Of a stretch of DNA of 35,403 nucleotides, positions 1 through 16,072 are shown one piece after another. This DNA comes from an uncultured Methylococcaceae bacterium. Its GTDB lineage: Bacteria > Pseudomonadota > Gammaproteobacteria > Methylococcales > Methylomonadaceae. Position numbers and translations under genes: made by a program. The DNA is taken from NCBI GenBank assembly GCA_913009515.1, contig CAJVYO010000001.1:1-35403 (forward strand), given 5' to 3'. Position 1 is the stretch's first letter. Each line of letters begins with the position of its first letter. Under the pieces are notes generated by a model. It saw only the letters and a program-made list of their open reading frames with translations, was not told where the DNA came from and searched no databases.

Positions 1-101
1 GATTAAGAAAAAAGGCTACCCCTCTATTCAGAAAAAATTATGGGGCATTGCCCATTGATATTATTCGCAAATATATCGAACAACAGCGAACGCCTAAATA
101 G
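1..101 (+). pseudogene. tnpA: 3' end of IS200/IS605-family Y1 transposase TnpA, with internal deletion and frameshift
   Basis: Frame 2 reads IKKKGYPSIQKKLWG then stops (TGA 56-58). Frame 3 reads PIDIIRKYIEQQRTPK* (TAG 99-101), containing the YIxxQ catalytic helix of Y1 transposases. The usual intervening LWSPSYF..SxGG segment is absent. Confidence 0.8.
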
Positions 102-123
102 AACATTAAACTAACTGAACCAC

Positions 124-169
124 TTACATCCCCGCCCTGAACGACGGGGTTTTACGCTACACTGGATAA
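124..169 (+). mobile_element. IS200/IS605-type subterminal hairpin / element end
   Basis: TTACATCCCCGCCCTGAACGACGGGGTTTTACGCTACACTGGATAA lies just after tnpA. CCCCG(130-134) and CGGGG(145-149) form an imperfect stem typical of IS605 ends. Confidence 0.7.
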
Positions 170-275: not shown

Positions 276-1370
276 TTAATTTTTACGCGTTTTAAATCCC
301 GTTCCTGTGCCGATTAAAGCTGCGATAATATTTTTTTGCATTTCAGAAGAGCCTGAAAACAAGCGACTGGCCATTGCATCTTGCACCAATTCCAGCATTT
401 TATTTTCCTGCATTAATCCTTTAGCACCCAATATATGTACCGCATCAAGGCTGGACTGCAAAAAAGCCTCACTGGCAATCAATTTAGTTTGTGCACTGGC
501 TAAACTAATACGCTTTTCCGCATCTTTTAAGCGCACACATTCATTCACCCATAATAAACAAGTATCAAGACGACATTTCATATCTGCAATTTTATGGCTA
601 ATGGCTTGATTCGCACCTAAATGTTCACCTTGAATCATGCGCTGACGACTATACTGGATTACTTCTGCTAATTGCCATTGCATTATGCCAATAATACCCG
701 CAAAAATAAAAGCGCGTTCTAATTCTAAGGCATTTTGAATCATCATATTACCCGCGCCTGTTTTTCCTAACTGGCGATTTAAAGGAATATGACAATTCGT
801 TAAATGCACATCACCCATGGTCGCTGTTTTACAGCCGACCACTTCAGGGGAGTCTTTAAAGTCTGCGCCTATATCATCAGAACAAACCAAGAAAGCCGAT
901 AATTTACTATCTAATTGCGCATAAATGACCAATACATCCGCAATGGGCGTATTGGTAATAAATCGCTTATGGCCATTAAGTACAAAGCCCTCTTCTGTAA
1001 CAGTGGCGGTTGCTTGTAGCAGGGAAATATCCGAACCCGCTTGAGGCTCTGTAATGGCATGACCGCCAATCATTTCTCCCGAAATTAAGGCAGGCAACCA
1101 AGTGTTTTTTTGTTTTTCCGTGCCATACAGCATTAAAGGAAAGATACTTCCCCAAATATGCGCATTGATAGATAAAATCAGCCCCGTATCTTGGCACACT
1201 TTGCCCAGCTTTAAATGCGCCTCAACCAGTTCTTGAAAGCCATTACCTAAGCCACCTAACTCTTTTGGCACAGCCTGTTTGAATAAACCCTGTTGCCCAC
1301 AAAATTGCAGACGACTTTTAGAGGCTAAACGATTACCACTCTTGGGAAGTTGTGTTGCAAAATTCATCAA
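276..1370 (-). CDS. Acyl-CoA dehydrogenase family protein; probable L-prolyl-S-PCP dehydrogenase (PltE/RedW/Bmp3-like)
   Basis: ACAD motifs AITEPQAGSD, GHKRFITN, HILGAKG and FSGSSEMQK. It overlaps the end of the proline-type A domain gene. Confidence 0.85.
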   Translation of the reverse strand: MMNFATQLPKSGNRLASKSRLQFCGQQGLFKQAVPKELGGLGNGFQELVEAHLKLGKVCQDTGLILSINAHIWGSIFPLMLYGTEKQKNTWLPALISGEMIGGHAITEPQAGSDISLLQATATVTEEGFVLNGHKRFITNTPIADVLVIYAQLDSKLSAFLVCSDDIGADFKDSPEVVGCKTATMGDVHLTNCHIPLNRQLGKTGAGNMMIQNALELERAFIFAGIIGIMQWQLAEVIQYSRQRMIQGEHLGANQAISHKIADMKCRLDTCLLWVNECVRLKDAEKRISLASAQTKLIASEAFLQSSLDAVHILGAKGLMQENKMLELVQDAMASRLFSGSSEMQKNIIAALIGTGTGFKTRKN

Positions 1371-2800
1371 TGAAAAAGTCCTTCTATCGCTAAATAATCT
1401 ATTTTACCGTTAGATAAAGTCGGTAACGTATCCACGATGATAAATTTACACGGCTGCATATAACTTGGTAGCAATCCGCGTAACGGTTTTATCGCTACAG
1501 CTAAATTCACTCCGTTTTCTAAAACCAATACCGCCGCAGGTCTTTGCCCGCTGGTCTTATCTCTCATCCCTATCACAGCACAATAGGCTATACCTTCCAA
1601 CTGAGAAATTCGTTGTTCAATTTCAGCAGGTTCAACACGATAGCCCGAACATTTCAGCATACGATCTAAACGGCCGTGATAACAATACTCGCCCCTGCTA
1701 TTTAAAGAGACTTTATCGCCTGTCGGATAAGGAGAACTGGCTAACGCAGATAATTTCCCATTTTGCCAATAGCCTGAAAAATTATTGAGACTTTGTACCT
1801 TTAACTCACTTGTTTCATTGTCCACATCTAATACGGCATCACCAGCCGCTTTGCCAATAGGAATAGACTCTCCTAGTTTTAATCGAGCGCGGTCTACCTT
1901 CCAATAACAACACACATTGGTTTCTGTGGGGCCATATAAATTATATAAATTCACCTCAGGTAATAAATTGCTCAAGGTGATTAAATGTTCCATTGGAAAC
2001 ACCTCGCCTGCAAATAAAATACGTTTTAACGCGCTTAAATCTGTTGTTTCTACCGCCCCTTTTAAAGCGATAAAACTTAATAAAGAAGGCACGGTATACC
2101 AACAACTGATTTTTTTCTCACTCAGCCATGCAGTTAATTTACTGGGTGCAAAACTAAGTTTATCAGGTATAAAATGCACACTTGCCCCGATAGAAAGGCT
2201 GCTAAATAAATCAAAAATAGATAAGTCAAAATGAAATGGCGCGAGACTGGCAATACAATCCGTATTATTTAAGCTAAACGTCTGGGTCGCCCAAGCAGAA
2301 AAATTAAATAAAGCCTGATGACTCAGAGCAACCCCTTTCGGCGTTCCAGTGGAGCCTGAAGTATATAAAATAGCCGCAATCTGCGTTTTTTCCAGCTCTA
2401 CAGGCATAAACGCCTTTTTATTCTGCTGAAAAATCTCATTAATATCCAACCATTTTTCAGACTGTTCTAGCCATTCGGGTGCTTTGCCTGAACCTATAAT
2501 ATAGCGGGCTTGAGCATCTTCAATAATAAAATTTAAACGCACCGCTGGATTTTTAATATCCAGCGGCACATAGATAGCCCCTGCACTCAGCACTCCATAA
2601 ATACACGCCGCAGAATCAATACCACGATCCAATGCTATCGCAATACACGAGCCTGCTATTAATTTTTTCTGGAGAAATAAACCAAGCGTCTCGACTCGAT
2701 GTTTAAAATCCACATAAGAAATGGCCGTTTCATTTTCACTGAATGCCAGTGCATCAGGCGTATCACTGCATTGCTTAAAAAATGGCTGAACAATATTCAT
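1367..2800 (-). CDS. Stand-alone adenylation enzyme; probable L-proline:PCP ligase (PltF/RedM/Bmp4-like)
   Basis: Motifs YTSGSTGTPKG, FHFDLS, NLYGPTETNVC, TGD, GYRVE and NGKID. The specificity code read by eye against GrsA is D-L-F-Y-L-A-L-V-C-K, the pattern of pyrrole-pathway prolyl A domains. Confidence 0.85.
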   Translation of the reverse strand: MNIVQPFFKQCSDTPDALAFSENETAISYVDFKHRVETLGLFLQKKLIAGSCIAIALDRGIDSAACIYGVLSAGAIYVPLDIKNPAVRLNFIIEDAQARYIIGSGKAPEWLEQSEKWLDINEIFQQNKKAFMPVELEKTQIAAILYTSGSTGTPKGVALSHQALFNFSAWATQTFSLNNTDCIASLAPFHFDLSIFDLFSSLSIGASVHFIPDKLSFAPSKLTAWLSEKKISCWYTVPSLLSFIALKGAVETTDLSALKRILFAGEVFPMEHLITLSNLLPEVNLYNLYGPTETNVCCYWKVDRARLKLGESIPIGKAAGDAVLDVDNETSELKVQSLNNFSGYWQNGKLSALASSPYPTGDKVSLNSRGEYCYHGRLDRMLKCSGYRVEPAEIEQRISQLEGIAYCAVIGMRDKTSGQRPAAVLVLENGVNLAVAIKPLRGLLPSYMQPCKFIIVDTLPTLSNGKIDYLAIEGLFH

Positions 2801-2801
2801 C

Positions 2802-4124
2802 TTATTCCATCAATAATTCATCTAACATCAAATCATGCAGCTGCTCAATCCATTGCATTTCAAATAATGGCTCAACAAAATTATAACTAAAGCTTAATTT
2901 TTGATTAAATTGGCAACTTAAAAAAGCAAGAGCTGGCGGGCTGGTCACTTGGCATAAGTGTAGAATATCTGCGATTTCACTGTCAAAAAAAGACATCTCA
3001 GAAACATCCGTACGGCCAATATCAGAAAACCAAAAAGAACTGCGCTCGCCTCCTGTTCCATACGCTTTACGCAATTGTTCGCCATGTTTTGCTAACGATA
3101 ACCAACTGGCTGCCCACATAACGGGTAAAAAAGCATAATCTAATTTTTCACGAATAACCTGCGTATGTTGTTGCTTTAGATGCTGAAATAAAGCCTCACG
3201 ATTATCCAATATCGATTTAGGGGCTTGAGCAAATAAAGCGCCGACATGATTACCTAATACCGGGCTAAGCGCTTTATTTTTGCGTAAATTAAACGCATAC
3301 GGCGCACAATACGCCTCACCTGCTTGCTCAGGATTCATACGATACAGCGCGCGCATAAAACAACCAATATAATATAAACTGGTTCCTGTTAAACCTACTT
3401 GCTGACGCGCCAACTTATTAACTCGTTGCGTTTGTTCTAAAGTTAGGCTGTAAGTTTGATAATTTAAACGCTCAGGGGTCTGTTGCGTATCTGCATGAAT
3501 CACACTGGGCAATGTATCTAAGCTAGTAATATAGCGTTTAGCCTTAAAAAAAAGAGCTATTTTTTGCCACCATTTATACTTCGCTAACTGTCGGTTAACC
3601 AACGAATCCAATTTAGGAAAATCGAACTTTTCACGCTGCTGTTCCGATTCAGTACACAGGTATTTTAAAATTAAATCCGCACTGCGCGCATCACAAAAAG
3701 GATGTATCCAGCGTAATAGAAAAACAGATTTATGTTCGCTGCTAATTAAATGAAAACTAATCGGTAAAATTGCTTCTCTATCATGCTTTTCATTAATTAA
3801 ATCTAATAGTACCGTCTTATGAAAATCAGCAGTATCATTTTTTTTCGCGGCATAATGCTTAAATAAATTTGGTGATTCCGCTCGTTCATACCAGAAAAAA
3901 CGCTTACCTTTCTGCTGTAAACTGGCATAAGCCAATGGAAACTTAAGCCCAAATTCATTAATACGCTGTTGCAAAACCTCTAAATCAGGTTGCTTTGATA
4001 GCTCCAAAGCAAAGCCACACAAACTACCCGGCATATTTTCTTGGCGAATTTCTTCATCCATTGCCAAGGTAAAATAATCAGCAGGGTTTAAACCTTGTAC
4101 TATTTTTTGTTGAGAATCACTCAT
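2802..4124 (-). CDS. Stand-alone condensation-domain-like / CoA-dependent acyltransferase-fold protein
   Basis: 440 aa with an HxxxD motif (WIHPFCDARS) at the usual C-domain position, plus AFNLR and LGNHV segments. Its start overlaps the PCP stop codon. Confidence 0.6.
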   Translation of the reverse strand: MSDSQQKIVQGLNPADYFTLAMDEEIRQENMPGSLCGFALELSKQPDLEVLQQRINEFGLKFPLAYASLQQKGKRFFWYERAESPNLFKHYAAKKNDTADFHKTVLLDLINEKHDREAILPISFHLISSEHKSVFLLRWIHPFCDARSADLILKYLCTESEQQREKFDFPKLDSLVNRQLAKYKWWQKIALFFKAKRYITSLDTLPSVIHADTQQTPERLNYQTYSLTLEQTQRVNKLARQQVGLTGTSLYYIGCFMRALYRMNPEQAGEAYCAPYAFNLRKNKALSPVLGNHVGALFAQAPKSILDNREALFQHLKQQHTQVIREKLDYAFLPVMWAASWLSLAKHGEQLRKAYGTGGERSSFWFSDIGRTDVSEMSFFDSEIADILHLCQVTSPPALAFLSCQFNQKLSFSYNFVEPLFEMQWIEQLHDLMLDELLME

Positions 4125-4357
4125 TACTTATGCTGTAAAATCCATTGCTCTAAGGTATTAAACGACCTAACATTATCTGGGTCAATTTCTGAATCTGGCA
4201 AAGTAACAGTAAACTGTTCTTCAACAAACATAATTAATCGCATAATGCCCATGCTATCTAAGCCTGCCTCTAGCAAATCATCATCATCGGAAAATTTTTC
4301 TGGCTCAGCAACAAAAATAAGGTCTTCAAAGATAAACTCTCGAATTTTTTCTTTCAT
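4124..4357 (-). CDS. Carrier protein (PCP/ACP, PltL-like)
   Basis: 77 aa, acidic, with the phosphopantetheine motif LLEAGLDSMGIMRL. First gene of the pyrrole operon. Confidence 0.85.
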   Translation of the reverse strand: MKEKIREFIFEDLIFVAEPEKFSDDDDLLEAGLDSMGIMRLIMFVEEQFTVTLPDSEIDPDNVRSFNTLEQWILQHK

Positions 4358-4461
4358 TTTTATTTATATCGTTTATGGTTTCATACAGTGCTTTTCCAAA
4401 ACACATTATTTATTCACTTCAATAAACGCAGTGAACATCCCTACATTTTAGAATCAGTATA

Positions 4462-5436
4462 TTGTCTATTAAATTGCCTAAAAATTCTTACCCTAAAATA
4501 AACATAGCCCTTATTATCATCGTTTGGAGCTTGCTTTATCTATATAGTTACCCGATGCACTGGGAGGCTATTCAACAATACTGGCCAATCTCTATCACCA
4601 TGATGTTTGGCTCTATCATTGCTGGTGCAACAAGTGAGGGTGGGGGTGCAATTGCTTTTCCAATATTCACTAAAGTATTACAAATTCCACCTCAAGATGC
4701 AAAAGTTTTTTCACTTGCTATCCAAAGTTTAGGTATGTCTGCGGCAACGCTCACCATTTTAAGTATGAAAATTCCAGTGCTATGGTCAGCTATTTTCTGG
4801 ACAAGTATTGGCGGTATTTTAGGTTTATCCATCGGACTTCATATTGCCCACTTTATTTCGCCCGAATTTATTAGGATGCTATTTACTATGATGGCCATTA
4901 GTCTAGCGATAAACTTAGCTTTTTTACAAGCCGATTTTCAGAAAAATTACCATACAATCACTAATATCACAGCTAAAGAGGCAAGCATTTTTATAGTCAC
5001 CGGAATAACGGGCGGTTTATTATCAGGATTGGTTGGCAGTGGTATTGATATGGTCTGTTTTACTGTATTAGTGCTACTCTTTAGAATAAATGTAACCATT
5101 GCAACACCCACTTCTGTTGTTTTGATGGCTATTCATTCATTTTTCGGTATATTAATACAAGTTTTTACGTTAGAAGGCATCAATTCTCAAGTACAAGACT
5201 ATTGGTTCGCAGCGGCACCCATCGTTATAATAGGCGCACCTTTAGGTGCTTTTTTATGCACAAAGATGAAAAATCAGCATATCCGCTATTTATTGATAAG
5301 CCTTATTAGCCTTGAACTATGTAGTTCTTTATGGCTACTAAAATTTAATATAACTTTAATTATCTTTAGTAGTGCCTTACTTATCTTTTTTTCAAGCCTT
5401 ATGCTCTATATGCACAAATCAAATGCTTATGTTTAA
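4462..5436 (+). CDS. TauE/SafE (sulfite exporter-like) membrane permease
   Basis: Multi-TM protein with duplicated halves (GATSEGGGAIAFP; SGLVGSGIDM). TTG start. Confidence 0.75.
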   Translation: MSIKLPKNSYPKINIALIIIVWSLLYLYSYPMHWEAIQQYWPISITMMFGSIIAGATSEGGGAIAFPIFTKVLQIPPQDAKVFSLAIQSLGMSAATLTILSMKIPVLWSAIFWTSIGGILGLSIGLHIAHFISPEFIRMLFTMMAISLAINLAFLQADFQKNYHTITNITAKEASIFIVTGITGGLLSGLVGSGIDMVCFTVLVLLFRINVTIATPTSVVLMAIHSFFGILIQVFTLEGINSQVQDYWFAAAPIVIIGAPLGAFLCTKMKNQHIRYLLISLISLELCSSLWLLKFNITLIIFSSALLIFFSSLMLYMHKSNAYV

Positions 5437-6211
5437 AACTATAATCAAAGAAATTATTGAATGGATTTTATTAATTTTTGGCTTTCTTTATTGGATAGTC
5501 TTTGGCTTTAGCATCAGCTTAGTTTCTAGGGTGCTCTATGTTATTTTACCCCCCAAAAAAGGGATATTATGGGGGCAATATCTTTTGCAAAAAATGTTTG
5601 TGGTTTTTATTGGCTACTTAAAAATAACTCATTTATTGCAGTTAGAAGATAAACAGCTTTCTATCCTAGCGAAACAAAAAGGCGCGGCCATTATTGCTCC
5701 AAATCATACGGCTTTATGGGATGCTATTTTTATAGCGCATAGAATCCCCGATATTCTTTGCATTATGAAAGGCTCTATTTTAAAAAATCCCATATTAGGA
5801 GGGGGCGCGCGTTTAGCAGGCTATATCCCTAATAATTCGACCAGCCAGATGTTGAAATTAGCCATCTCACGTTTACAAGCACAAGATAGACTGCTTATTT
5901 TTCCTGAAGGCACCCGTACAAAAACAGAGGCTCAATGGCTCAACCCCTTAAAGGGTGGAACAGCACTTTTAGCTAAACACAGCGGCGCACCGGTTATTCC
6001 TATTTTTATTAGAAGCAATACCCGTTTTTTCGAAAAAGGCTGGCCACTTTATAAAAAACCTAAATTCCCATTAAAAATATCGATTCACGTTGCTGAACCC
6101 GTATGGATAGAAAAAAATGAAAGCTCTCAAGCTTTTACCCAGCGACTTGAACAGCTATATTTAAAAGAATTATCCTCTCCTCACCGTTTACAAAGAATTC
6201 CCTATGAATAG
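5423..6211 (+). CDS. PlsC-family lysophospholipid acyltransferase (ApeD-like)
   Basis: NHTALWD (HX4D) and FPEGTR motifs. An ATG at 5423 or 5429, overlapping the upstream stop, is preferred over GTG 5372. Confidence 0.85.
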   Translation: MLMFKTIIKEIIEWILLIFGFLYWIVFGFSISLVSRVLYVILPPKKGILWGQYLLQKMFVVFIGYLKITHLLQLEDKQLSILAKQKGAAIIAPNHTALWDAIFIAHRIPDILCIMKGSILKNPILGGGARLAGYIPNNSTSQMLKLAISRLQAQDRLLIFPEGTRTKTEAQWLNPLKGGTALLAKHSGAPVIPIFIRSNTRFFEKGWPLYKKPKFPLKISIHVAEPVWIEKNESSQAFTQRLEQLYLKELSSPHRLQRIPYE

Positions 6212-6971
6212 TGTATCCAGCTCGCATTTTGTGATGATTCCCAGCTATAACACGGGGAGATTATTGCCAATTACGGTAGAAGAGGCTTTAAACGAATGGT
6301 TACCTGTCTGGGTTATTATTGACGGCAGTGATGATAATAGTGAACAATTATTAAAACCTTTGCAAGCCAAGCATCCAGAAACGCTGAAAATCATTAAGCT
6401 GGCTAATAATATCGGCAAAGGTGCGGCTATTTTGCACGGTCTAACGCAGGCGAGAGCACATAACTATACACACGTACTCACGCTGGATGCAGATCATCAA
6501 CATCCTGCCAATTACATTAGCAAATTTATGGCTTTATCGCTTAAAAATCCCAGCAGTATGATTTTAGGGATGCCTGAATTTGATGCTTCTGCACCGATGT
6601 TACGTGTTAAAGGGCGGAAAATATCCAATTGGTGGGCTAATTTAGAAACATTAGGCTGGGGTATCAAAGATTCTTTGTTTGGAATGCGCGTCTATCCCAT
6701 TGAAGATTTAATGACTGTTATGCAATCGACAAGCTGGGCAAGACGTTTTGATTTTGAACCTGAAGTAGCAGTACGCTTGGCTTGGCTTGGTGTTTCTGTG
6801 CTTAATATTTCTACCCCTGTGCGTTATATTCTCAAGGAAGACGGCGGCATTAGCCAGTTCAAATATGGGCGAGATAACTTATTATTAACAGGGATGCACA
6901 TACGCTTATTTAGTGAGTTTTTATTACGCTTACCTGTGCTGATATATAAAAAATATAGCCCTACTCGCTAA
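6204..6971 (+). CDS. Glycosyltransferase family 2 (aryl-polyene/xanthomonadin cluster type)
   Basis: Motifs IPSYN, IDGSDD, GKGAA, DADHQH, DSLFGMRVYP and RFDFEPE. Confidence 0.85.
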   Translation: MNSVSSSHFVMIPSYNTGRLLPITVEEALNEWLPVWVIIDGSDDNSEQLLKPLQAKHPETLKIIKLANNIGKGAAILHGLTQARAHNYTHVLTLDADHQHPANYISKFMALSLKNPSSMILGMPEFDASAPMLRVKGRKISNWWANLETLGWGIKDSLFGMRVYPIEDLMTVMQSTSWARRFDFEPEVAVRLAWLGVSVLNISTPVRYILKEDGGISQFKYGRDNLLLTGMHIRLFSEFLLRLPVLIYKKYSPTR

Positions 6972-7045
6972 AAATAAGGCTGGTAAAAAAATTAAGGTAA
7001 AATAGCTTTTTATTTCTCTCCCTTTAAAATTTAGGATAATAAACT

Positions 7046-7309
7046 ATGTCAGACGCATTAATAGCGGAATTAAAAACATTAATTATTGAAGGCTTGCATT
7101 TAGAAGATATTACTACTGAAGAAATTATGCCCGATGAACCTTTATTTGGTGAAGGCTTGGGTTTAGATTCTATTGATGCTTTAGAAATTGCCGTGTTATT
7201 AGATCGTCAATATGGCGTTAAAATTACGTCTGAAGATGAGCGTAATCAAGAAATATTTGCCTCGTTAAATTCTTTAGCTCAGTTTATTGCTGAAAACAAA
7301 ACTAAATAA
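7046..7309 (+). CDS. Acyl carrier protein (ApeE/XanC-like)
   Basis: PLFGEGLGLDSIDALE motif typical of aryl-polyene ACPs. AGGA RBS upstream. Confidence 0.9.
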   Translation: MSDALIAELKTLIIEGLHLEDITTEEIMPDEPLFGEGLGLDSIDALEIAVLLDRQYGVKITSEDERNQEIFASLNSLAQFIAENKTK

Positions 7310-7315
7310 CCGGTT

Positions 7316-7954
7316 ATGCAAGCCATTCTTCGTAGCATTTTCATAACATGTCTATTTTTAGGCTATCCTTACTTAGTTTATCTCGGTGTAAAACAAGGAA
7401 TAGTCTGGTTTGCACCCCTTGTTATTGCCAGTATTTATTTATATCAAGCCATTCGAGCTAAAAATCAAAAAATAAAACAACAAAAATGGGCTATCGTGTG
7501 TGTGTTATTTCTTGGAACTATTTTCTTTCAAGAAGTCATCGCTAAATTTATGCCGATTTTCATACAATTAAGTTTACTACTATTTTTTGGCAAAACCTTA
7601 TTTAAAGGCCCGCCTTTAATTGAGCGTTTTGTACGCTTTGAGTTTCCAGAAATTCCCCCTGTCATTCAAGAATATTGCCGCTATTTAACCATTATGTGGA
7701 CCAGTTTTTTTGCCTTTAATATTATCGCGTGCATTGTACTCGCTTTATTTGCCCCTATTGAATGGTGGGCTATTTATACCGGCGTAATGATTTTCATGCT
7801 CTCTGGGGTATTGATGGTCGCTGAATATATTTGGCGACATTTTTACTTTCGCCGCATCGACTTACCGCATAAAGAAATTCCCAGTGTCAGGGATTCCATT
7901 AGAAATATGATTATTAATGGCAAAACCATTTGGTTTGATGTGCAAGAAAGCTAA
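7316..7954 (+). CDS. COG4648-type membrane protein (ApeG-like)
   Basis: FGKTL..GPPLIERF, YCRYLTIMW, WWAIYTG and AEYIWR pattern. Follows the ACP as in aryl-polyene clusters. Confidence 0.75.
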   Translation: MQAILRSIFITCLFLGYPYLVYLGVKQGIVWFAPLVIASIYLYQAIRAKNQKIKQQKWAIVCVLFLGTIFFQEVIAKFMPIFIQLSLLLFFGKTLFKGPPLIERFVRFEFPEIPPVIQEYCRYLTIMWTSFFAFNIIACIVLALFAPIEWWAIYTGVMIFMLSGVLMVAEYIWRHFYFRRIDLPHKEIPSVRDSIRNMIINGKTIWFDVQES

Positions 7955-7961
7955 TTTCCCT

Positions 7962-8603
7962 ATGTATTCAAAAAAATTCCGTTCTATCCTGCTAACAACT
8001 CTGGCGATGATTCTGTATTCAATCCAGCTTATTGCCAGTGATACCGTTGAATCGGTGATTGCTCGCATGAAAACCCAGACGGCGACCAAAATTGCCTATA
8101 CAGAAACCCGCGACATGGGATTATTTTCGGATACATGGCAAGCGACTGGGGTTTTATATGCTCAACCGCCTAATATTATGCTGAAACAGCAACAGCAGCC
8201 GACTGTGGAAATCATGGCGATTGAAGCTGACCAACTTTATTATCATAAGCCTGCAACCGATACTTTTCATCAGATGCAGTTTGATGAAAATAACGAAATG
8301 ATGGCCAGTATTATCATTTTTAAAGGGCTGATGACGGGAGATAGTCACTATTTACGCCAATTTTATACGCTTTCGATAAAAAATAGCGCGCAGAATTGGA
8401 GTTTGTTGATGGAAGAAAAAAATCCAGATAGCGAACAGCAGGGGCTAAAAATCATTATTCAGGGAATGCCAGAACAAGCGGCACACTCTATTAGCATCAC
8501 GCTACCCGATGGCGATGAAGAAAGTTATGCGTTAAGTCCTCCTGAACACAACCCATATTTTAAACAGCTTAATAGCTTATTAAACGCCTTAAAATCTCAT
8601 TAA
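7962..8603 (+). CDS. LolA-like periplasmic lipid carrier
   Basis: Signal peptide after ATG 7962. AYTETR...ATGVLY.QPP LolA-fold pattern. Precedes the MMPL gene. Confidence 0.7.
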   Translation: MYSKKFRSILLTTLAMILYSIQLIASDTVESVIARMKTQTATKIAYTETRDMGLFSDTWQATGVLYAQPPNIMLKQQQQPTVEIMAIEADQLYYHKPATDTFHQMQFDENNEMMASIIIFKGLMTGDSHYLRQFYTLSIKNSAQNWSLLMEEKNPDSEQQGLKIIIQGMPEQAAHSISITLPDGDEESYALSPPEHNPYFKQLNSLLNALKSH

Positions 8604-8608
8604 TTAAT

Positions 8609-10921
8609 ATGCGCCCTTCGTTTGCTTCGCTGTTTTTCATTATTATCCTGCCGCTTTTGATCGGGCTTGCTTTTTTTACTGTGCAGTTTAAAACGGATAT
8701 GTCCGCCTTTTTAATCACAGGTGAGAATGCCGAAGAAATTTTATTAGCCAGTGAAATCCAATCAGGCACTTTATCCAGACGCTATATTTTATCCATTGAT
8801 GCAGGGCAGAATCAGGTGGTTGCTCCGCGTTTTATTGAAACATGGATAGCCAAAATCAAAACCATTCCAGAGGTTAATAGTCTCTGGCGCGCCAATGAAC
8901 AAAAAAATACGCTCAAGAGTTTATCCACACTGTACACAAAACACGCCACACAGCTTTACAGCCGCGAGCCTGAAAAAACATTAGCGCAGATATTTACTCA
9001 AAGCGCACTTTCTCAAAGAGCGGAAGCACTTAAACAAGCGCTGCTTTCGCCTCAAGCCTCTGTTATCAAAAAAATTGCCGTTCAAGACCCTTTATTACTG
9101 TCTTTAAATGGTTTTAAATCCTTTGCCGATCAATTCAAAAAAACAGCGTTGCAACAAACAGGGCAGTACGCTAATTTTATTTTAGTCACCGACCCTTCGG
9201 GCATGGACATTGAAAAACAGCGGATTATTCAAGCTGAAATCAAACGCTACTTTAGTGAAAACACTAAAAACTTAGCCTATACATTAGAGATGACTGGCGT
9301 ACCTATTTTTGCCGCTGCCACCCAAACAATGATTCAAACGGATATTCAGCAAGTCAGCCTGTTATCGACCATTGCTCTAATTCTGTTGTTTTTAGTACTG
9401 TTCCGCTCCTTTAAAGTGTTATTTTGGGTATCCAGCCTATTACTCTTTGTTATTTCAGTGGCGCTATTAACCACACAATTAATCTTTGGCTCTGTACACG
9501 GCATGACCATTGCCATTGGCTCTACTTTAATTGGCATTTGTATTGATTACCCGATTCATGCCATCGTACACGCTCAAGGCTCCGAGCCGCAACACCGTTT
9601 ACAATCGATAAAAACTATTTTTCCAAGTCTTGCGATGGGCGCGCTAACAACGCTTATTGGTTATATCGCTTTAGGTATTTCAGGCTATCCTGGATTCCAA
9701 CAAGTGGCTATTTATGCCAGCACAGGTATTATCAGTTCCTTATTATTAACCCGTTATTTATTCCCTTATTTAATAACAGGCAAAGTGAAAAAAGTTAATA
9801 CCTTTAAGTTCATTATTATTTGGTCTAAATTTTGCCAAAGCTTCCGACCGTATCTAGTCGCTGTAGTGATTCTTCTGTCTGCCTTTAGTGTTATAAAACT
9901 GGATAATTTACAATGGATGCAAGATTTACAGCAACTGACTCCCGAATTAGATTACTTAAAGCTTAATGATAAAAAAATTCGTGAACGCTTAGTAAGTATG
10001 GAGCCAGGACGATTTATCCTCGTCAGCGGAAAAACCCCCGAACTCGCCTTACAATATTCTGAGCAACTTTATCCGCTGTTAGAACACTTAAAACAAAGTA
10101 AAGCACTCGATGATTATTTTGGCCTGTATCCTTGGATACTTTCACAACAGCAGCAACAAAAAAACCAAGCGTTCTTAGCGAAATCACTGACAACAGAACA
10201 TCAAATACATTGGCAAGCCGCTTTAAAACAGCAGAAATTATCGGTTAAACGCTTAGGCGATTTGGACAGATATAGCCATTCAGTGAAGACTTTAACACCA
10301 CAAGAAATATTAAGCTCTCCGATTGCACCTCTAATTAATAACCAACTCATTATTAATGCACAACAAACCTTACTGATTATTTGGCTGGGTAAACATAACC
10401 CCGAAGCCTTAAAACTTGCTCTAAAAGATAGAGAGCATATCCAATATTTTAGCCAACGGGATTTACTTAACCGCATGGCAATTGATTATCAAAATCAGGC
10501 CGAAATAACCTTACTCTCTGGCTTAGCTCTTATTTTGTGTTTACTAAGCTGGCGTTATAAAAGTATTCTATTAGCGATAAAAACACTGTCTCCTGCGGTT
10601 ATTTCAGCCTTATTGATTTTAGCCTTATGGGCTTCGACAGGGGAAGCTATCAGCTTTTTACACTTAGTAGGATTTTTATTAGCCGTTGCTATTTGTGTCG
10701 ATTATGGTATTTTTTATCAAGAAAACCGCAGCGGAAATATCAGCCTAACCTATCAAGCGATGGCGGCTTCCATGTTAACTAGCGCATTGGTGTTCGGCTG
10801 TTTATTAATTGCCCAAACTTCGACCTTACAAACACTCGCCAAAGTGGTTACTTTGGGTATTATTTTAGGGTTTTTATTATGCCCCATCTTAATTAAGCCG
10901 CGTCCATTCATAAAGCCATAA
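8609..10921 (+). CDS. MMPL/RND-family exporter (aryl-polyene/xanthomonadin type)
   Basis: 770 aa with two TM bundles; LIGICIDYPIH and AICVDYGIF GxxxD motifs; QDPLLL. Confidence 0.85.
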   Translation: MRPSFASLFFIIILPLLIGLAFFTVQFKTDMSAFLITGENAEEILLASEIQSGTLSRRYILSIDAGQNQVVAPRFIETWIAKIKTIPEVNSLWRANEQKNTLKSLSTLYTKHATQLYSREPEKTLAQIFTQSALSQRAEALKQALLSPQASVIKKIAVQDPLLLSLNGFKSFADQFKKTALQQTGQYANFILVTDPSGMDIEKQRIIQAEIKRYFSENTKNLAYTLEMTGVPIFAAATQTMIQTDIQQVSLLSTIALILLFLVLFRSFKVLFWVSSLLLFVISVALLTTQLIFGSVHGMTIAIGSTLIGICIDYPIHAIVHAQGSEPQHRLQSIKTIFPSLAMGALTTLIGYIALGISGYPGFQQVAIYASTGIISSLLLTRYLFPYLITGKVKKVNTFKFIIIWSKFCQSFRPYLVAVVILLSAFSVIKLDNLQWMQDLQQLTPELDYLKLNDKKIRERLVSMEPGRFILVSGKTPELALQYSEQLYPLLEHLKQSKALDDYFGLYPWILSQQQQQKNQAFLAKSLTTEHQIHWQAALKQQKLSVKRLGDLDRYSHSVKTLTPQEILSSPIAPLINNQLIINAQQTLLIIWLGKHNPEALKLALKDREHIQYFSQRDLLNRMAIDYQNQAEITLLSGLALILCLLSWRYKSILLAIKTLSPAVISALLILALWASTGEAISFLHLVGFLLAVAICVDYGIFYQENRSGNISLTYQAMAASMLTSALVFGCLLIAQTSTLQTLAKVVTLGIILGFLLCPILIKPRPFIKP

Positions 10922-10938
10922 GACATTATATTAATATT

Positions 10939-12147
10939 ATGCCCAAAAAATCTGCTTTAACCACGCCTGTCGCCATTACTGCGATGTCCTCTCTCAGTGT
11001 CTGTGGGCTAGGAAATCAGGCTTTATACCAATCCCTGATTAAACATGAAACGGAACTCGCGCCTTTAGAATTATTTAACGTACCTTTTAAAAATTATGTC
11101 GGTGAAATTAAAACACCGTTAATATCGATTAAGCAGGCACTTAATGACTATGCCAGCCGAAATTCACAAGTCGCCTTAACCGCACTCAATTGCCCAGAAG
11201 GAAAGGTAAGAGAACAACTGGAAGCAGCAAAAATAAAATACGGCACACAGCGTATTGGAATTATTATTGGCACTAGTACTTCAGGTTTATATGAAACGGA
11301 ATCCGCTTATGCTTCTTTATTGCAACACGATAAAATGCCGCAGGATTTTGACTTTGTTAAGCAACACGCCTACCAAGCCACTGCTCGATTTTTACAATTA
11401 GAACTCGGATTACAAGGCATCTGTTTTGCTATTTCAACCGCCTGTTCATCAGGGGCTAAAGCTATTGCCGCAGGCCAAAAACTGATTAACAATGACCTGT
11501 GTGATGCGGTACTCGTGGGTGGGGTTGATACCTTATGCCGACTCACGCTTAGAGGGTTTAATAGTTTAGAATTAGTCTCTGATAAACCGTGTCGCCCAAT
11601 GGATAAAGATAGAAACGGTATTAGCATTGGCGAAGCGGCGGGCTTACTGCTGTTAGAAAAATGTCATGCCAATAATGAAAGTAATCTTAAAATTTTAGCG
11701 GTGGGTGAATCCTCTGATGCGTATCACATGAGTACCCCGCATCCTAAAGGCGAAGGGGCGCAATTAGCCATGCAAAATGCTTTACACGCGGCAGGATTAA
11801 AATCGTCTGATATAGATTATTTAAATTTACACGCGACCGCCACCAAAATAAACGACCAAGTAGAAAGTACTGCCGTGGAAACGGTTTTTTCAGACAGCGT
11901 GGCTTGCAGTGGCACTAAAGGTATCACGGGACATACACTGGGAGCAGCAGGCGCGTTAGAAACCATTATTGCCAGCCTCAGTTTACAACAGCAATTTATC
12001 TCTGGCACCGTTGGCTTACAAGAAACCAATTCAGACTGCCACTGTCAGGTGATTAAAACCCCTCAATTTAACCAGCCCCTCACGATTGCCATGAGTAATT
12101 CCTTTGGTTTTGGTGGTAATAATGCAAGCGTCATCATAGGCCTATGA
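10939..12147 (+). CDS. Beta-ketoacyl-ACP synthase (type II PKS KS)
   Basis: STACSSG (Cys), NLHATAT (His), GHTLGAAG (His) and SNSFGFGGNNAS motifs. Confidence 0.92.
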   Translation: MPKKSALTTPVAITAMSSLSVCGLGNQALYQSLIKHETELAPLELFNVPFKNYVGEIKTPLISIKQALNDYASRNSQVALTALNCPEGKVREQLEAAKIKYGTQRIGIIIGTSTSGLYETESAYASLLQHDKMPQDFDFVKQHAYQATARFLQLELGLQGICFAISTACSSGAKAIAAGQKLINNDLCDAVLVGGVDTLCRLTLRGFNSLELVSDKPCRPMDKDRNGISIGEAAGLLLLEKCHANNESNLKILAVGESSDAYHMSTPHPKGEGAQLAMQNALHAAGLKSSDIDYLNLHATATKINDQVESTAVETVFSDSVACSGTKGITGHTLGAAGALETIIASLSLQQQFISGTVGLQETNSDCHCQVIKTPQFNQPLTIAMSNSFGFGGNNASVIIGL

Positions 12148-12899
12148 TTCATAATTCTCTGTTTATAAAATCTTTTGCGCTTTGTTGCTCTGATACCGAG
12201 TTATTAAGCGCCTTTAATCTGCTAAGTCATGAAGTCGATAAAACACTGTTGCCCGCCGCAATGCGCAGACGCACCAGTTTAAGCACTAAAATGGCGATTA
12301 CGGCGGCGACCTTAGCCTGCGAACAAGCCAAGGTCGAAACAAAGTCACTGCCTTCTGTTTTTGCTTCTTTAGGCGGTGAAATACAAGTGACCGATGCCTT
12401 ATGTCGATTATTACCGGATGATAATGAGCTGCTTTCTCCCACTCAATTTCATAATTCAGTACATAACACCACGGCGGGCTATTGGAGTATTTTAAATCAA
12501 TGCCAAGCACCGACTACAGCGATTGCGGCGGCGGATGATACTTTTGCAATGGGGCTGATTGAAGCGTGGTCGCAACTACAACAGTCTGAGCAAACAGAAC
12601 AATTATTAGTCTGTTATGATGAAATATGGCCACAATATTTAGCCGCTCCCATTGGTAAAATTCCTTTTGCCTGTGCCTTGGTGTTAAGCACTCAAGCCGA
12701 AGGAAGTATTGCTAATATTAGCTTACCTAAACTATCAGAATCCGTTAATAAAGACAGACTCAATCCAGAGTGGGTAAATTTAGCCGCGTCCGCCCCCGCG
12801 GCGAATGTTATTCCTTTGCTGATGGCCTTGCACACTAAAAGTAATCACCCCATCCCTTTAAATAGTGGGATACCGACTTGGATAACGGCTCTTTTATGA
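12144..12899 (+). CDS. Ketosynthase chain-length factor (CLF, aryl-polyene type)
   Basis: MRRRTS and LSPTQFHNSVHN motifs. Lacks the KS catalytic motifs. ATGA overlap with the KS gene. Confidence 0.85.
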   Translation: MIHNSLFIKSFALCCSDTELLSAFNLLSHEVDKTLLPAAMRRRTSLSTKMAITAATLACEQAKVETKSLPSVFASLGGEIQVTDALCRLLPDDNELLSPTQFHNSVHNTTAGYWSILNQCQAPTTAIAAADDTFAMGLIEAWSQLQQSEQTEQLLVCYDEIWPQYLAAPIGKIPFACALVLSTQAEGSIANISLPKLSESVNKDRLNPEWVNLAASAPAANVIPLLMALHTKSNHPIPLNSGIPTWITALL

Positions 12900-14083
12900 A
12901 ACATAAATCCTATGATGTCATTATTGCAGGGGCTGGTCCTGCTGGCAGTACAGCGGCAACTTTATTGGCTCAATATGGACATAGCGTCTTATTAATTGAA
13001 AAATCTGAACACCCTCGATTTCATATCGGTGAATCGATGTTACCGATGGCAGAACCTGTCATGAAACGTTTAGGCATTGATTGGCAAGCAGGCAATTTAA
13101 AAAAAGGCGGTGCTGAATTTATCGATGAAACTTCTGGAAGAGCCACTTACTTTCCTTTTCAAGGAAAATACCGTACCTTTCAAGTGGAACGCTCTGTTTT
13201 TGATCAACGACTGTTTAATAATGCCGTTGCTCAAGGAGTGATTGCCCATGAAAATGAAACCATTACACAGGTTGATTGTCATCGTGAACAAGTGGATATT
13301 CAAACCGATAAACAAAGCTATCAAGCCCGTTATTTTATTGATGCCACAGGCCGCGATGCGCTTATGGGTAAAAAACTCAACAGCATCCAGAAAATTAACA
13401 ACCTCGGGCAATATGCCCTATATAAACACTATCGATTAAATCATTCGCCAGAGGCACAGGCATTATTCAGTCACGGTAATATCAAAATTTTTCTATCCCA
13501 AATTGGCTGGATTTGGTGTATCCCCTTAACTGATAATCGTTTAAGCGTTGGCTTAGTGGTGCAAAAACAAGAGGCTACCCCGTTAAAAAAAGAGGCTTTA
13601 TATGAGCAATATATACAGGCATCGCCTTATATGAAACGTTTATTGGAAAAGGCTGAGGTATTATCTGAGATACGCATTGAAGCCGACTTTAGTTATCAAA
13701 ATCAACAGCGTTATGGACAGCGTTTTGCTTGTTGTGGCGATGCATCAGGTTTTTTAGACCCTGTTTTCTCATCAGGTTTTTTATTTGCAGTCAAAACAGC
13801 GGAATTTGTCGCAGACACCCTGCATACACATTTATTAGCAGGTACTGAAGCCGATAGCGAATTGCAGAAAATAAATGATGCCTTTTATCAAAAAGGTTTT
13901 AAAACCATGCACTTATTAATAGAGCGTTTTTACGGCTCTAATTTAGTTGAAAATTTATTTTTTGAGTCGGACAGACAACTCAAAATAAAACAGGAAATTG
14001 TCGCGCTGTTAGCAGGCGATTTATGGCAGGAAGGCAATGGCTTCCAACAAGGATTGCTGAGTGGTAGAAGTAAAAATACTTAA
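12896..14083 (+). CDS. Flavin-dependent halogenase 1
   Basis: GAGPAG, HPRFHIGESMLP, candidate catalytic Lys in LKKGGA, WIWCIP (WxWxIP) and GDASGFLDPVFSSG. ATGA overlap with the CLF gene. Confidence 0.8.
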   Translation: MKHKSYDVIIAGAGPAGSTAATLLAQYGHSVLLIEKSEHPRFHIGESMLPMAEPVMKRLGIDWQAGNLKKGGAEFIDETSGRATYFPFQGKYRTFQVERSVFDQRLFNNAVAQGVIAHENETITQVDCHREQVDIQTDKQSYQARYFIDATGRDALMGKKLNSIQKINNLGQYALYKHYRLNHSPEAQALFSHGNIKIFLSQIGWIWCIPLTDNRLSVGLVVQKQEATPLKKEALYEQYIQASPYMKRLLEKAEVLSEIRIEADFSYQNQQRYGQRFACCGDASGFLDPVFSSGFLFAVKTAEFVADTLHTHLLAGTEADSELQKINDAFYQKGFKTMHLLIERFYGSNLVENLFFESDRQLKIKQEIVALLAGDLWQEGNGFQQGLLSGRSKNT

Positions 14084-14102
14084 CTTTAAAAAGGAAACTC
14101 AA

Positions 14103-14669
14103 ATGAAATTATTCAAATTAACACTTATTTTTTTAACCCTCCTTATCATCAGTGCGTGTTCAAGCAATAAGACTCAAATTCATAATGACATTACTCAAGA
14201 TAATATCATTACATCTGCATCCAATGGTGCTACATTATCAATTAAACCAGTTATTTATACAAAAAATTTAGAACTCAGGGATACAGTAAAAAAAGAATGT
14301 CAGTTACTCACGAAATTGCCTACTTTTATAAAAAATTATGCTGCAAAACAGTATGGCACTATAAATCTAGAGTCTAAAAACAGCAAGTCAGGAGATTTTT
14401 TAGTCTTAGAAATTTCAGGTATTTCTAATGCTAAAAAGAATATTTGGACAGGACAAGGTGTGGGTCAATGGGTTACTGTCAAAGGAACTTTATTAAGAAA
14501 TGGAAAAAATATAGCCTCATTTAAAGCTAATAGAGCCACTACAGGAGGATTTATGGGGGGATACAAAGGAACGTGTGCCTTATTAGGTCGCTGTACAAAA
14601 ACATTAGGTAAAGATATTGCAGCTTGGCTTAAAAAACCAGTCAATAATGCACAGTTAGGCGACTTATAA
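14103..14669 (+). CDS. Conserved hypothetical lipoprotein
   Basis: AAGGA RBS before ATG 14103, lipobox IISAC, and C-terminal GGFMGGYKGTC..LGRC..LGKDIAAWL. Confidence 0.7.
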   Translation: MKLFKLTLIFLTLLIISACSSNKTQIHNDITQDNIITSASNGATLSIKPVIYTKNLELRDTVKKECQLLTKLPTFIKNYAAKQYGTINLESKNSKSGDFLVLEISGISNAKKNIWTGQGVGQWVTVKGTLLRNGKNIASFKANRATTGGFMGGYKGTCALLGRCTKTLGKDIAAWLKKPVNNAQLGDL

Positions 14670-14687
14670 AGTTACTCAATATAATAA

Positions 14688-14726
14688 GCCAATTTAGATA
14701 TAAGTTTTTATTTAGGTTGGCATTTT
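14688..14726 (+). terminator. Possible hairpin terminator after the lipoprotein gene
   Basis: GCCAATTTAGATA...TATTTAGGTTGGC stem with G-U pairs, followed by ATTTT. Confidence 0.35.
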
Positions 14727-14740
14727 AAAAAACTATATCA

Positions 14741-16072
14741 ATGACTCTCCCTTGTACAGAAAACATCCCATCAAAATGTACCGTCTTAATTATAGGCGGT
14801 GGTCCTGCAGGCAGTAGCTCGGCAACCCATCTTGTGAAAGCCGGTATTGATGTAGTTTTATTAGAACGCAGCAAATTTCCTCGAAATCAAGTGGGAGAAA
14901 GTTTGATTCCCCATTTTTGGAAGTTCGCTGACCAACTGGGGGTTTCTGAAAAAATAGAGCAAGAGGGCTTTATTAAAAAATCGGGAGCCATTACCGCTTG
15001 GGATAATAAAATACATCAGACCGATTTTTCTAAATACGGTTATACCCGTCCAGGCTTACAAGTTGAACGGGATATTTTTGATAACTTATTACTAGACCAT
15101 TCCAAAAGCCAAGGCGCACAAGTCTTTAATCAAGTGGTTGTTAAAGATATTAACCTTGCTTCTGTCAATCCTGTTATACGCTATATAGACACAAGAAAAG
15201 AGGAAAACAGAGAAGGCACGATACAGTGCCGTTTTGTGATTGATGCCAGTGGTCATAGTGCCATGATTGCGAATCAATTAGGCACTAAAAATATTATTAG
15301 CACGGAATTAAATTTCTTATCTTTATGGGGCTATTTTAAACATTCTCGCTATATAGGCTGTGACCGTAAAAGTCATGATGCCTCCGAACTTAATTCTGTC
15401 GCGCCTGTCACCTTTGTCAGTTCCCATAAAGATGGCTGGCTGTGGCATATTATATTGCGCGAGAAAACCAGCGTGGGCTTGATTGTGCATACCGATAGAT
15501 TATCAGGCATGAATAAACAACAGCGAGAAAGCTATTTTAAACAAACCTGTGCTGAACTTCCCTATGTGAAAGACTTATTAAAAAACGCCAGTTTTATGGA
15601 AAATTCATTAAACTATCGCCCTGATTATTCTTACTACACCACTCAATCCTGTGGTGAAAATTATTATTGTATTGGCGATGCGGCTGGGTTTGTAGACCCT
15701 GTTTTTTCTCATGGTGTACAAAATAGTTTTTACAATGCCGCCGTCACTTGTTTAGCCATTACCGAATCCTTAAAAACGCCACAGAAACAAGCCCGTTATG
15801 CCCAGCTTTGTGAAAATAGAATGCAACAATTTTATGGATTTTCCAGAGCTTTATCGTTAGGGGATTTTGGCTGTAATGGCGTCAATAATCAACTGGTGGT
15901 TTCATTAATGAAAGCCTTGCCGCCTTTAGAACTAGAACTTATTTTAATCGCCTCAGAAATGACCAACCGCTCGGATAATTTCAAAAAAATAGCCCAACAA
16001 GCAGGAGTATGGGATAGAATATCCGCGAACTTAAAAGATCAATCGTTAGGTCTGGTTCATTCTTTATACTAA
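14741..16072 (+). CDS. Flavin-dependent halogenase 2
   Basis: GGGPAG, FPRNQVGESLIP, GFIKKSGA, WLWHII (WxWxI) and GDAAGFVDPVFSHG. Confidence 0.8.
   Translation: MTLPCTENIPSKCTVLIIGGGPAGSSSATHLVKAGIDVVLLERSKFPRNQVGESLIPHFWKFADQLGVSEKIEQEGFIKKSGAITAWDNKIHQTDFSKYGYTRPGLQVERDIFDNLLLDHSKSQGAQVFNQVVVKDINLASVNPVIRYIDTRKEENREGTIQCRFVIDASGHSAMIANQLGTKNIISTELNFLSLWGYFKHSRYIGCDRKSHDASELNSVAPVTFVSSHKDGWLWHIILREKTSVGLIVHTDRLSGMNKQQRESYFKQTCAELPYVKDLLKNASFMENSLNYRPDYSYYTTQSCGENYYCIGDAAGFVDPVFSHGVQNSFYNAAVTCLAITESLKTPQKQARYAQLCENRMQQFYGFSRALSLGDFGCNGVNNQLVVSLMKALPPLELELILIASEMTNRSDNFKKIAQQAGVWDRISANLKDQSLGLVHSLY

Follow-up and report, generated by a model that had tools for sequence, protein, structure and literature searches.

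A proline-derived pyrrole module beside an aryl-polyene glycolipid gene set in a methanotroph: a candidate route to a halopyrrole-bearing membrane lipid

The DNA analyzed here (the window) is the 35,403-nucleotide stretch formed by positions 1 to 35,403 of contig CAJVYO010000001.1 from an uncultured Methylococcaceae bacterium (assembly GCA_913009515.1); it is contig C1 of a source genome, labeled G000, that is 71% complete. Between positions 276 and 16072 lie two divergent, tightly packed gene runs, 104 nt apart. One encodes the parts of a pyrrole-forming module of the Plt (pyoluteorin) type together with a stand-alone condensation-superfamily protein (the C-like protein), and the other encodes the core of an aryl-polyene (APE) cluster with two halogenase-like proteins. 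The cluster genes are real and conserved and belong together; each part comes from a known family, and the combination and its product appear to be undescribed. Our best explanation, which we hold with moderate confidence, is that a xanthomonadin-type APE glycolipid cluster has been combined with the Plt-type module and that the C-like enzyme transfers a (halo)pyrrole-2-carbonyl group to the lipid as an ester or amide. What the sequences show is which genes are present and contiguous, their motifs, a predicted fold, and their co-occurrence; all of the catalytic steps are inferred. A sequence-only reading of the window had named most of these genes, and all of its open reading frames (ORFs) were found over that span in two divergent runs; its list stands for the genes that it named, but it overlooked a permease and a lipoprotein-like ORF. 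The features are as follows.

1 to 164, minus strand: end of an IS200/IS605-type tnpB element, downstream of the dehydrogenase gene; it breaks the assembly and is absent from the related locus L158.
276 to 1370, minus strand: prolyl-carrier dehydrogenase-like member of the acyl-CoA dehydrogenase family (ACAD; PltE/RedW/PigA/Bmp3 type); best NCBIfam matches RedW and PigA.
1367 to 2800, minus strand: stand-alone proline adenylation (A) enzyme (PltF/PigI type), from its pocket PDB matches and code.
2802 to 4124, minus strand: stand-alone condensation-superfamily (C-like) protein, predicted pyrrolyl transferase, from its AlphaFold fold and HxxxD motif (H141/D145).
4124 to 4357, minus strand: PltL-like peptidyl carrier protein (PCP) with GLDSM motif; best PDB match PltL.
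4462 to 5436, plus strand: TauE/SafE-family permease, first gene of the plus-strand run (Pfam TauE, E = 9e-25).
5372 to 6211, plus strand: PlsC/ApeD-type acyltransferase (Pfam Acyltransferase; NHxxxxD motif).
6204 to 6971, plus strand: family 2 glycosyltransferase (GT2; glycosyltransferase half of the ApeJ type; Pfam Glycos_transf_2).
7046 to 7309, plus strand: APE-type acyl carrier protein (ACP; PRK09184, 109.7 bits against a cutoff of 70).
7316 to 7954, plus strand: membrane protein at the ApeG/COG4648 position, with about six hydrophobic segments; a Burkholderia YI23 homologue occupies the same position.
7917 to 8603, plus strand: LolA-like carrier (ApeL type; Pfam LolA_3, weak LolA2_flexi match).
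8609 to 10921, plus strand: MMPL/RND exporter (ApeM type; Pfam MMPL).
10939 to 12147, plus strand: APE-type ketosynthase (KS) with a Cys-His-His triad (PRK09185, 463.7 bits against a cutoff of 407; tree; motifs).
12144 to 12899, plus strand: chain-length factor (CLF; ApeC type; Pfam Ketoacyl-synt_2, E = 1e-34).
12878 to 14083, plus strand: flavin-dependent halogenase-like protein Hal1 (Pfam Trp_halogenase; matches PltA and 5buk; GAGPAG and GWIWCIP).
14061 to 14669, plus strand: lipoprotein-like ORF (N-terminal hydrophobic stretch and then Cys; homologues of 37 to 59% identity in relatives).
14741 to 16072, plus strand: flavin-dependent halogenase-like protein Hal2 (Lys pair aligned with PltA and CmlS).

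The sequence-only reading had recognized a pyrrolyl-PCP module of the PltL/PltF/PltE type, and the A code, the PltL-like carrier, the RedW/PigA-like ACAD, and the accompanying C-like protein bear this out. The A enzyme and PCP, together with the probable dehydrogenase (ACAD), are well supported as a proline-derived pyrrolyl-PCP module. For the pocket region of the A enzyme, the top PDB matches were 6o6e (PltF) and 7thn, the two L-proline carrier-protein ligases, and its code, DLFYLALVC, is identical to that of PltF (DLLYLALVC) at eight of nine positions. Among 92 homologous ORFs of fetched loci, duplicates included, 75 have this same code and the others differ at one or two positions. The closest solved relative of the PCP is PltL (E = 4e-8), and its gene adjoins the A and dehydrogenase genes. 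The ACAD matches the NCBIfam families RedW (E = 5e-83; 279 bits against a cutoff of 650) and PigA (E = 4e-82; 276 bits against 500), in both cases below the cutoff, with the next-best family at 5e-52, 30 orders of magnitude behind. The proline A code, the carrier, the probable dehydrogenase, and PltA-like halogenase motifs are shared with PltF/PltL/PltE/PltA of pyoluteorin synthesis, PigI/G/A, and Bmp1-4, the pyrrole chemistry of the last being described in PMC5577590. Unlike in those pathways, the module here is followed by neither a type I polyketide synthase (PKS) nor a thioesterase; a stand-alone C-fold protein would make the hand-off, and the module is partnered with a membrane-lipid pathway. 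In many relatives, a PEMT/ICMT-type membrane methyltransferase gene that the window does not have lies beside the ACAD or PCP gene (L007:4491-4967; L038:6527-7006), and it is a candidate pyrrole N-methyltransferase gene.

The plus-strand run was correctly seen in that reading as an APE/xanthomonadin core, comprising a PRK09184 ACP, a PRK09185 KS, a CLF, MMPL, LolA, PlsC, and GT2. The best PDB matches of the window KS were 7f28 and 6qsp. In a phylogeny built with FastTree, as were the halogenase and ligase clade trees (the last without two outgroups; an earlier ligase tree was a quick version), the window KS is of the APE type and sister to the Burkholderia KS, and it falls in a clade of nine rows (support, 99), every one of them from a genome with the pyrrole module. 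The membrane-protein gene does run straight into the LolA gene, as had been noted, with an overlap of 38 nt and no ligase gene between them. The COG4648 label of its product comes from that reading; no Pfam or NCBIfam family matches the protein, which is 29% identical to its counterpart at the same position in the Burkholderia cluster. A dedicated ACP is encoded in the window, with the ketoreductase (KR) and dehydratases (DH) on contig C177, and ApeG/L/M-type export genes, PlsC, and GT2/acyltransferase are all present. An ApeR-type KS query returned only FabF/FabB-level matches in the 71%-complete G000, and ApeR-type KSs are present in other lineages of the order. The set resembles the ape clusters of Escherichia coli CFT073 and Xenorhabdus doucetiae in its KS/CLF, ACP, ApeH-type ligase, DH, KR, PlsC, GT2 plus acyltransferase, and ApeG/L/M export genes and in having no lyase within the cluster. 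It differs from them in having one ACP and no ApeR-type KS found, at least four halogenase-like genes, a CrtI-like gene, TauE, and the pyrrolyl-PCP and C-domain module, which is absent from the CFT073 cluster.

The left end of the window falls in a tnpB-only IS200/IS605-type element of about 1.3 kb, located at window positions 1 to 164 and L001:5708-6958 and with TnpB encoded on contig C92. The element is inserted after TTTAT, has the right end TCAA and subterminal hairpins, and has related ends on many contigs of G000. C92 overlaps window positions 1 to 77, and C177 overlaps C92, in each case by 77 identical bases; in the whole set of 260 contigs only four shared end groups of this kind occur, and C229 also shares in the window join. 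That the C92-window join is a repeat artifact, C229 having the same end, was considered and rejected on account of the empty site and true neighbor seen in L158. This locus, 99.5% identical and lacking the element, runs from window position 14124 to 165 and then through C92 to the FabG gene of C177, its order past the ACAD gene being a 153-amino-acid (aa) ORF, a CrtI-like oxidoreductase, Hal3, Hal4, and FabG. L158:19833-20375 additionally holds a 180-aa ORF between FabG and Hal4, where C177 of G000 passes directly from one to the other. At L001:2053-5714 are genes for a CrtI-like FAD oxidoreductase, an atypical 545-aa halogenase-like protein, and a small secreted-looking ORF, and the same trio adjoins the pyrrole module in G133, L147, L158, and L161.

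Upstream of FabG (357 bits against a cutoff of 273), C177 carries a dehydratase-like gene, a lipid-A-type acyltransferase gene, an ApeI-like gene, and the gene for an ApeH/XanA2-type ligase. Its two DH-like ORFs were called by position and weak homology (29% by BLAST to an ApeP-like protein; a weak FabA match in a fusion from G139). The ligase (C177:407-1711) has intact P-loop, A5, A7, A8, and A10 motifs and is 27% identical to CFT073 ApeH and 33% identical to the Burkholderia ligase. The L158 stretch stops at FabG, and the ligase is linked to the cluster through C177 itself and through the closest relative, G133, in which all of the genes form one contiguous cluster with the ligase gene divergent from TauE. 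UbiC is encoded on contig C193 of G000 and in all four relatives tested; neither a XanB2-type family member nor an ammonia-lyase was found in the five genomes, the 71%-complete G000 included, that were tested for each. The sequence-only reading had reported no starter ligase and no chorismate lyase, which is true of the window but not of the genome, with its ligase on linked C177 and UbiC on C193. Its argument that a pyrrole has replaced the aryl head, the ligase being missing, was therefore rejected: the ligase is present in G000 and in all 71 genomes with a window-type KS. The missing chorismate lyase gene is likewise uninformative, because the CFT073 cluster has none either, and the CFT073 APE is thought to use 4-hydroxybenzoate (4-HBA) made by UbiC (PMC8253772). 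With the xanthomonadin/arcuflavin clusters of Xanthomonas, Azoarcus BH72, and Burkholderia YI23, the locus shares the PRK09184 ACP and PRK09185 KS, and with YI23 the same gene set. The ligase-DH-acyltransferase block, which in YI23 lies between the membrane-protein and LolA genes, has moved away here, and the comparison of sequences indicates that it is relocated, not lost. The differences from clusters of this type are that a XanB2-type chorismatase was found in none of the five genomes tested for it and that the ligase belongs to a separate clade. ArcT, a characterized ligase of this type, takes 3-hydroxybenzoate and 4-substituted benzoates (PMC3949708).

To follow the module through related genomes we used one order-level sample of 301 genomes and a class-level sample of 400, grading C-like matches as strong (best E value of 1e-60 or less) or weak (at the level of a paralogue) and counting KS, Hal2, and ligase at strict thresholds (for the ligase in C-like genomes, E of 1e-50 or less). 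The order tallies include an unpublished genome (G042), and the wider comparisons and ligase tree include G337, G415, G559, and G569; no conclusion depends on any of these. The C-like protein matched in 111 of the 301 genomes (101 strongly and 10 weakly), that is, strongly in about a third of the sampled methanotroph-order genomes, mussel gill symbionts among them, and the ligase, Hal2, and the window KS matched in 119, 86, and 71, respectively. C-like is encoded in 66 of the 71 window-KS genomes, the other 5 being fragmented assemblies. Of the 101 C-like genomes, 76 match the ligase, and a further 43 genomes have the ligase without C-like. Five near-complete genomes among the 25 C-like genomes without a ligase match were tested. 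Each has MMPL and a single CLF whose operon includes a divergent ApeH-ApeI fusion, and in four of them this operon also encodes an aromatic ammonia-lyase with an ASG motif, so that the pyrrole module is accompanied there by a dedicated aryl starter. KSs and ligases of two deep lineages occur with the module, which is therefore not tied to one starter system. Outside the order the C-like family is rare: 8 of the 400 genomes of the class-level sample matched (G000 and G010 are among them), strong matches being limited to G666 and G695. On a single contig of G666, from outside the order, the pyrrole module is found together with a KS of the window clade and a canonically placed ligase of the ApeH lineage, the complete canonical APE operon facing genes for PCP, C-like, A, ACAD, and a halogenase. 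The G+C content of the cluster (38.9%) is close to that of the genome (37.7%) and gives no signal of a foreign island.

The C-like protein has 440 aa and no Pfam match, and its AlphaFold model (pLDDT, 90.9) has the two-lobed condensation-domain fold. H141 and D145 are invariant across 38 homologues, and the PCP gene lies directly upstream in all 85 loci with room to see it. Named relatives, at 64 to 71% identity, are labeled, for example, as Methyloprofundus, a Methylomonas metagenome-assembled genome, a Bathymodiolus methanotrophic symbiont, or an uncultured bacterium; the family comprises 422 clusters at 50% identity (E of 1e-30 or less), look-ups of clusters returned no informative name, a search of plasmids gave no match, and the Atlas neighbors, which we take as a lead only, are hypothetical or Condensation/PapA_C clusters. 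In G284 (L119:436-6898), a second PCP and C-like pair (54%) lies beside a halogenase-KS-DH-FabG-KS operon of the other lineage, reflecting either transfer or binning contamination.

Both window halogenases, as the sequence-only reading had it, belong to the Trp_halogenase family and have its GxGxxG and WxWxI motifs. The catalytic-Lys region is also present in Hal1 and Hal2, and the aligned Lys is presumably the catalytic residue. CmlS, PltA, ChlB4, and other halogenases score alike against the two. Hal1 usually follows a KS/CLF pair of the window type. Hal2 matched in 86 of the 301 genomes, 84 of which have the C-like gene; at the same threshold, it was not matched in 17 C-like genomes. By co-occurrence only, Hal2 is the leading candidate for halogenation of the pyrrole. 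In the tree, Hal4 clusters with the halogenase-like gene from Burkholderia, whose cluster is pyrrole-free, and Hal4 therefore probably acts on the polyene or aryl part of the molecule. Two rows of the halogenase tree were disregarded, G004_426, which is a Na+/H+ exchanger, and G040_426.

The pathway that we propose would begin with the loading of L-proline on the PCP by the A enzyme and its oxidation by the ACAD to pyrrolyl-2-carboxyl-S-PCP, which Hal2 would halogenate; relatives with the PEMT-like gene may also N-methylate the pyrrole. In parallel, the C177 ligase would load a hydroxybenzoate (UbiC-derived 4-HBA) on the ACP, and KS/CLF, FabG, and the two dehydratases would build the polyene, which may also be halogenated, by Hal1 and Hal4. 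Its assembly on a glycero-phospho-sugar anchor, as proposed for the aryl-polyene lipids (APELs) of Xenorhabdus, would fall to PlsC, GT2, and the lipid-A-type acyltransferase. Using H141/D145, the C-like protein would then transfer the PCP-bound pyrrolyl group to the lipid, at a hydroxyl or amine on the sugar, the glycerol, or the phenol, and MMPL, LolA, and the membrane protein would export the lipid to the outer membrane. The APEL scaffold is glycerol-phosphate-N-acetylgalactosamine with the polyene bound to the sugar (bioRxiv 10.1101/2020.12.19.423268), and by analogy it offers possible acceptors for the pyrrolyl group. Arcuflavin sets a precedent, in that an APE is linked there to what a second module makes (PMC3949708), a dialkylresorcinol where the present module would supply a pyrrole. 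The sequence-only reading had left it open whether the pyrrole is the head of the lipid or a decoration of it. Decoration is the better of its two suggestions, at about an even chance, and the head a good deal more doubtful. Decoration is the simplest reading because the module survives with two KS/ligase lineages, always with a starter ligase where this could be checked and sometimes with a dedicated aryl-supplying lyase. In five loci (L022, L023, L035, L144, and L163), a GT2 gene immediately precedes PCP and C-like and runs in their direction, and this and the similar placing of a paralogous cassette, described below, are hints that fit decoration. Sugar de-N-acetylation as a general source of an amine acceptor was rejected, a deacetylase being found in one of five genomes, not in G000, and also in pyrrole-free clusters; in some lineages a deacetylase gene is coupled to the ACAD gene.

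Several points weigh against transfer to the lipid, and each is given here with the alternative on which it bears. The sequences single out no particular group as a probable acceptor for the pyrrolyl group. The C-like motif, IHPFCDA, keeps the second His and the Asp of the canonical HHxxxDG condensation motif but not its first His, and the Gly is replaced by Ala; and the nearest fold, that of AzeD (Z = 33.7; TM = 0.76), is that of a dehydratase rather than a transferase, followed by nonribosomal peptide synthetase C domains (Z = 29.3) and SgcC5 (Z = 24.6). C-like might therefore be no transferase and instead catalyze an AzeD-like dehydration or release the pyrrole acid hydrolytically, with any attachment made by PlsC or the lipid-A-type acyltransferase. 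AzeD, a stand-alone dehydratase with the motif PHxxxDG (bioRxiv 10.64898/2026.07.17.738954), leads the fold matches by a margin and also lacks the first His. C-like is, however, only 11 to 12% identical to AzeD and has no Pro before its His, so that the PHxxxDG signature is not present, its gene always follows that of the PCP, and the paralogue C2 retains HHxxxD, and we regard this possibility as improbable. SgcC5 acts in C-1027, where the logic is A-PCP-halogenase-C. It is a free-standing C protein that forms esters (PMC12304814). Both it and AzeD have the fold of C-like, which differs from them in its motif (xHxxxDA) and in its donor and acceptor.

The counted genomes are kin, so their counts are not independent; they show inheritance as a unit and are no statistical test. 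Physical linkage is often interrupted. Of the 16 genome loci of at least 12 kb, 6 have one or more APE genes within 10 kb, and in only 2 of the 16 are there at least two such genes; for metagenome loci, the count with at least two is 17 of 29. The two runs might then be co-traveling pathways, in which the module yields its own small (halo)pyrrole amide or ester and has only its location, its halogenases, or its transport in common with an ordinary APE cluster. The PCP and C-like genes are frequently distant from APE genes, as in the many same-genus loci where they adjoin purM/Tim44, and the 43 genomes with the ligase alone point the same way. Set against this, the C-like genomes that could be checked as a whole had APE ligase or transporter genes (76 of the 101 by direct match and all 5 tested among the others), and no thioesterase or second acceptor-loading module accompanies PCP and C-like. 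The sequence-only reading had made its proposal depend on the two runs recurring together, and they do so in at least five gene orders, among them the single co-directional run from TauE through ACAD in G002, and at the genome level across the order. We consider separate pathways unlikely.

The remaining points concern the starter. The ligases that pair with a window-type KS group apart, in a clade with a support of 98 and 20 rows (18 of them from C-like genomes), and its pocket motif is altered: the residue after the TET motif is the bulkier Leu (17 rows), Gln (2), or Met (1) within the clade versus Gly in 45 of 46 readable rows outside it (four rows have no readable motif). The complete genomes G018, G053, G179, and G020 have two CLFs and one ligase. 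In the window-type-KS genomes that were tested, neither XanB2-type nor ammonia-lyase genes turned up, so their starter may be other than hydroxybenzoate. Taken with the confinement of the window KS clade to pyrrole-module genomes among the rows tested, these points speak for the pyrrole, or a conjugate of it made by C-like, as the polyene head in window-type systems. It would reach the APE ACP directly or via a re-specialized ligase and be elongated by this KS/CLF clade, to give a pyrrolyl-polyene lipid anchored in the membrane, perhaps together with an aryl chain where there are two KS/CLF pairs. A fungal precedent is rumbrin, a polyene with a proline-derived, chlorinated pyrrolyl starter (PMC9643285), which belongs to the product class expected for a pyrrole head and differs in its highly reducing type I PKS, its CoA-bound starter, and its lack of a lipid anchor. 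Other observations argue the opposite. The ligase is present in every window-KS genome and UbiC in all five genomes tested, the module is also kept with an ApeH system fed by a tyrosine/histidine ammonia-lyase-type enzyme where a window-type KS was not found, and G666 pairs a Gly-type ligase with the window KS clade. Bulky residues at the post-TET position are also known in benzoate ligases. We accordingly treat a pyrrole head as tentative. So, too, is a broader view, that a halogenated pyrrolyl-polyene outer-membrane glycolipid represents a heteroaryl branch of the APEs with a dedicated KS/CLF clade, a re-specialized ApeH-type ligase, and A-PCP-C genes as swappable head or decoration cassettes.

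Returning to decoration, a second cassette lies amid the APE genes of some relatives. It encodes a halogenase-like protein, PCP2, the C-like paralogue C2, an FAD oxidoreductase, and an acyl-CoA-ligase-like A2 (L037:8457-14012; likewise in L044, L089, L090, L092 to L096, and L122). C2 keeps HHxxxD and is about 20% identical to the window C-like protein. The cassette was not found in the 71%-complete G000 and coexists with the pyrrole module in some genomes, and four genomes with C2 alone retain the ApeH-type ligase. Because it sits among the same APE genes and C2-only genomes keep the ligase, such cassettes may be interchangeable acyl decorations.

Aryl-polyene clusters are among the commonest biosynthetic clusters of bacteria. 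According to a survey of methanotroph gene clusters, they are dominant in Methylococcaceae, and the covered part of that survey notes APE clusters with no occurrence of "pyrrol" or "halogen" (PMC11964084). The sequence-only reading knew of no characterized pathway with the present architecture, and we likewise found none in open-access full texts, with subscription journals, MIBiG, and the supplements of the APEL and AzeD preprints lying outside the search. In the covered parts of the sources, the one paper containing both "arylpolyene" and "pyrrole-2-carbo" treats them separately, a marine pyrrole review does not use the term "polyene," and a 2026 labeling review has nothing relevant to a pyrrole module in an APE cluster. 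If the proposal is true, these genes would specify halopyrrole-bearing membrane lipids of a new class, which could serve as a biomarker and be a source of organohalogens in methane seeps, and a large unannotated family of stand-alone C-fold proteins would gain a function.

The TauE/SafE permease gene recurs next to transport genes in related clusters, and TauE permease or Na+/H+ exchanger genes recur in halogenase-rich ones (window 4462-5436; L089:5185-6408; L137:5482-6762); a role in halide supply is a guess. Scans of the window for promoters (41 versus 50.7) and terminators (21 versus 15.9) were at chance level. Elsewhere in the window, positions 20231 to 22285 encode a PpiC/SurA-type isomerase fused in frame to Glucodextran_B and caspase (Peptidase_C14) domains, and the G+C content falls to 25.6% across positions 21001 to 22000, within this region, which suggests a recent fusion or an assembly join.

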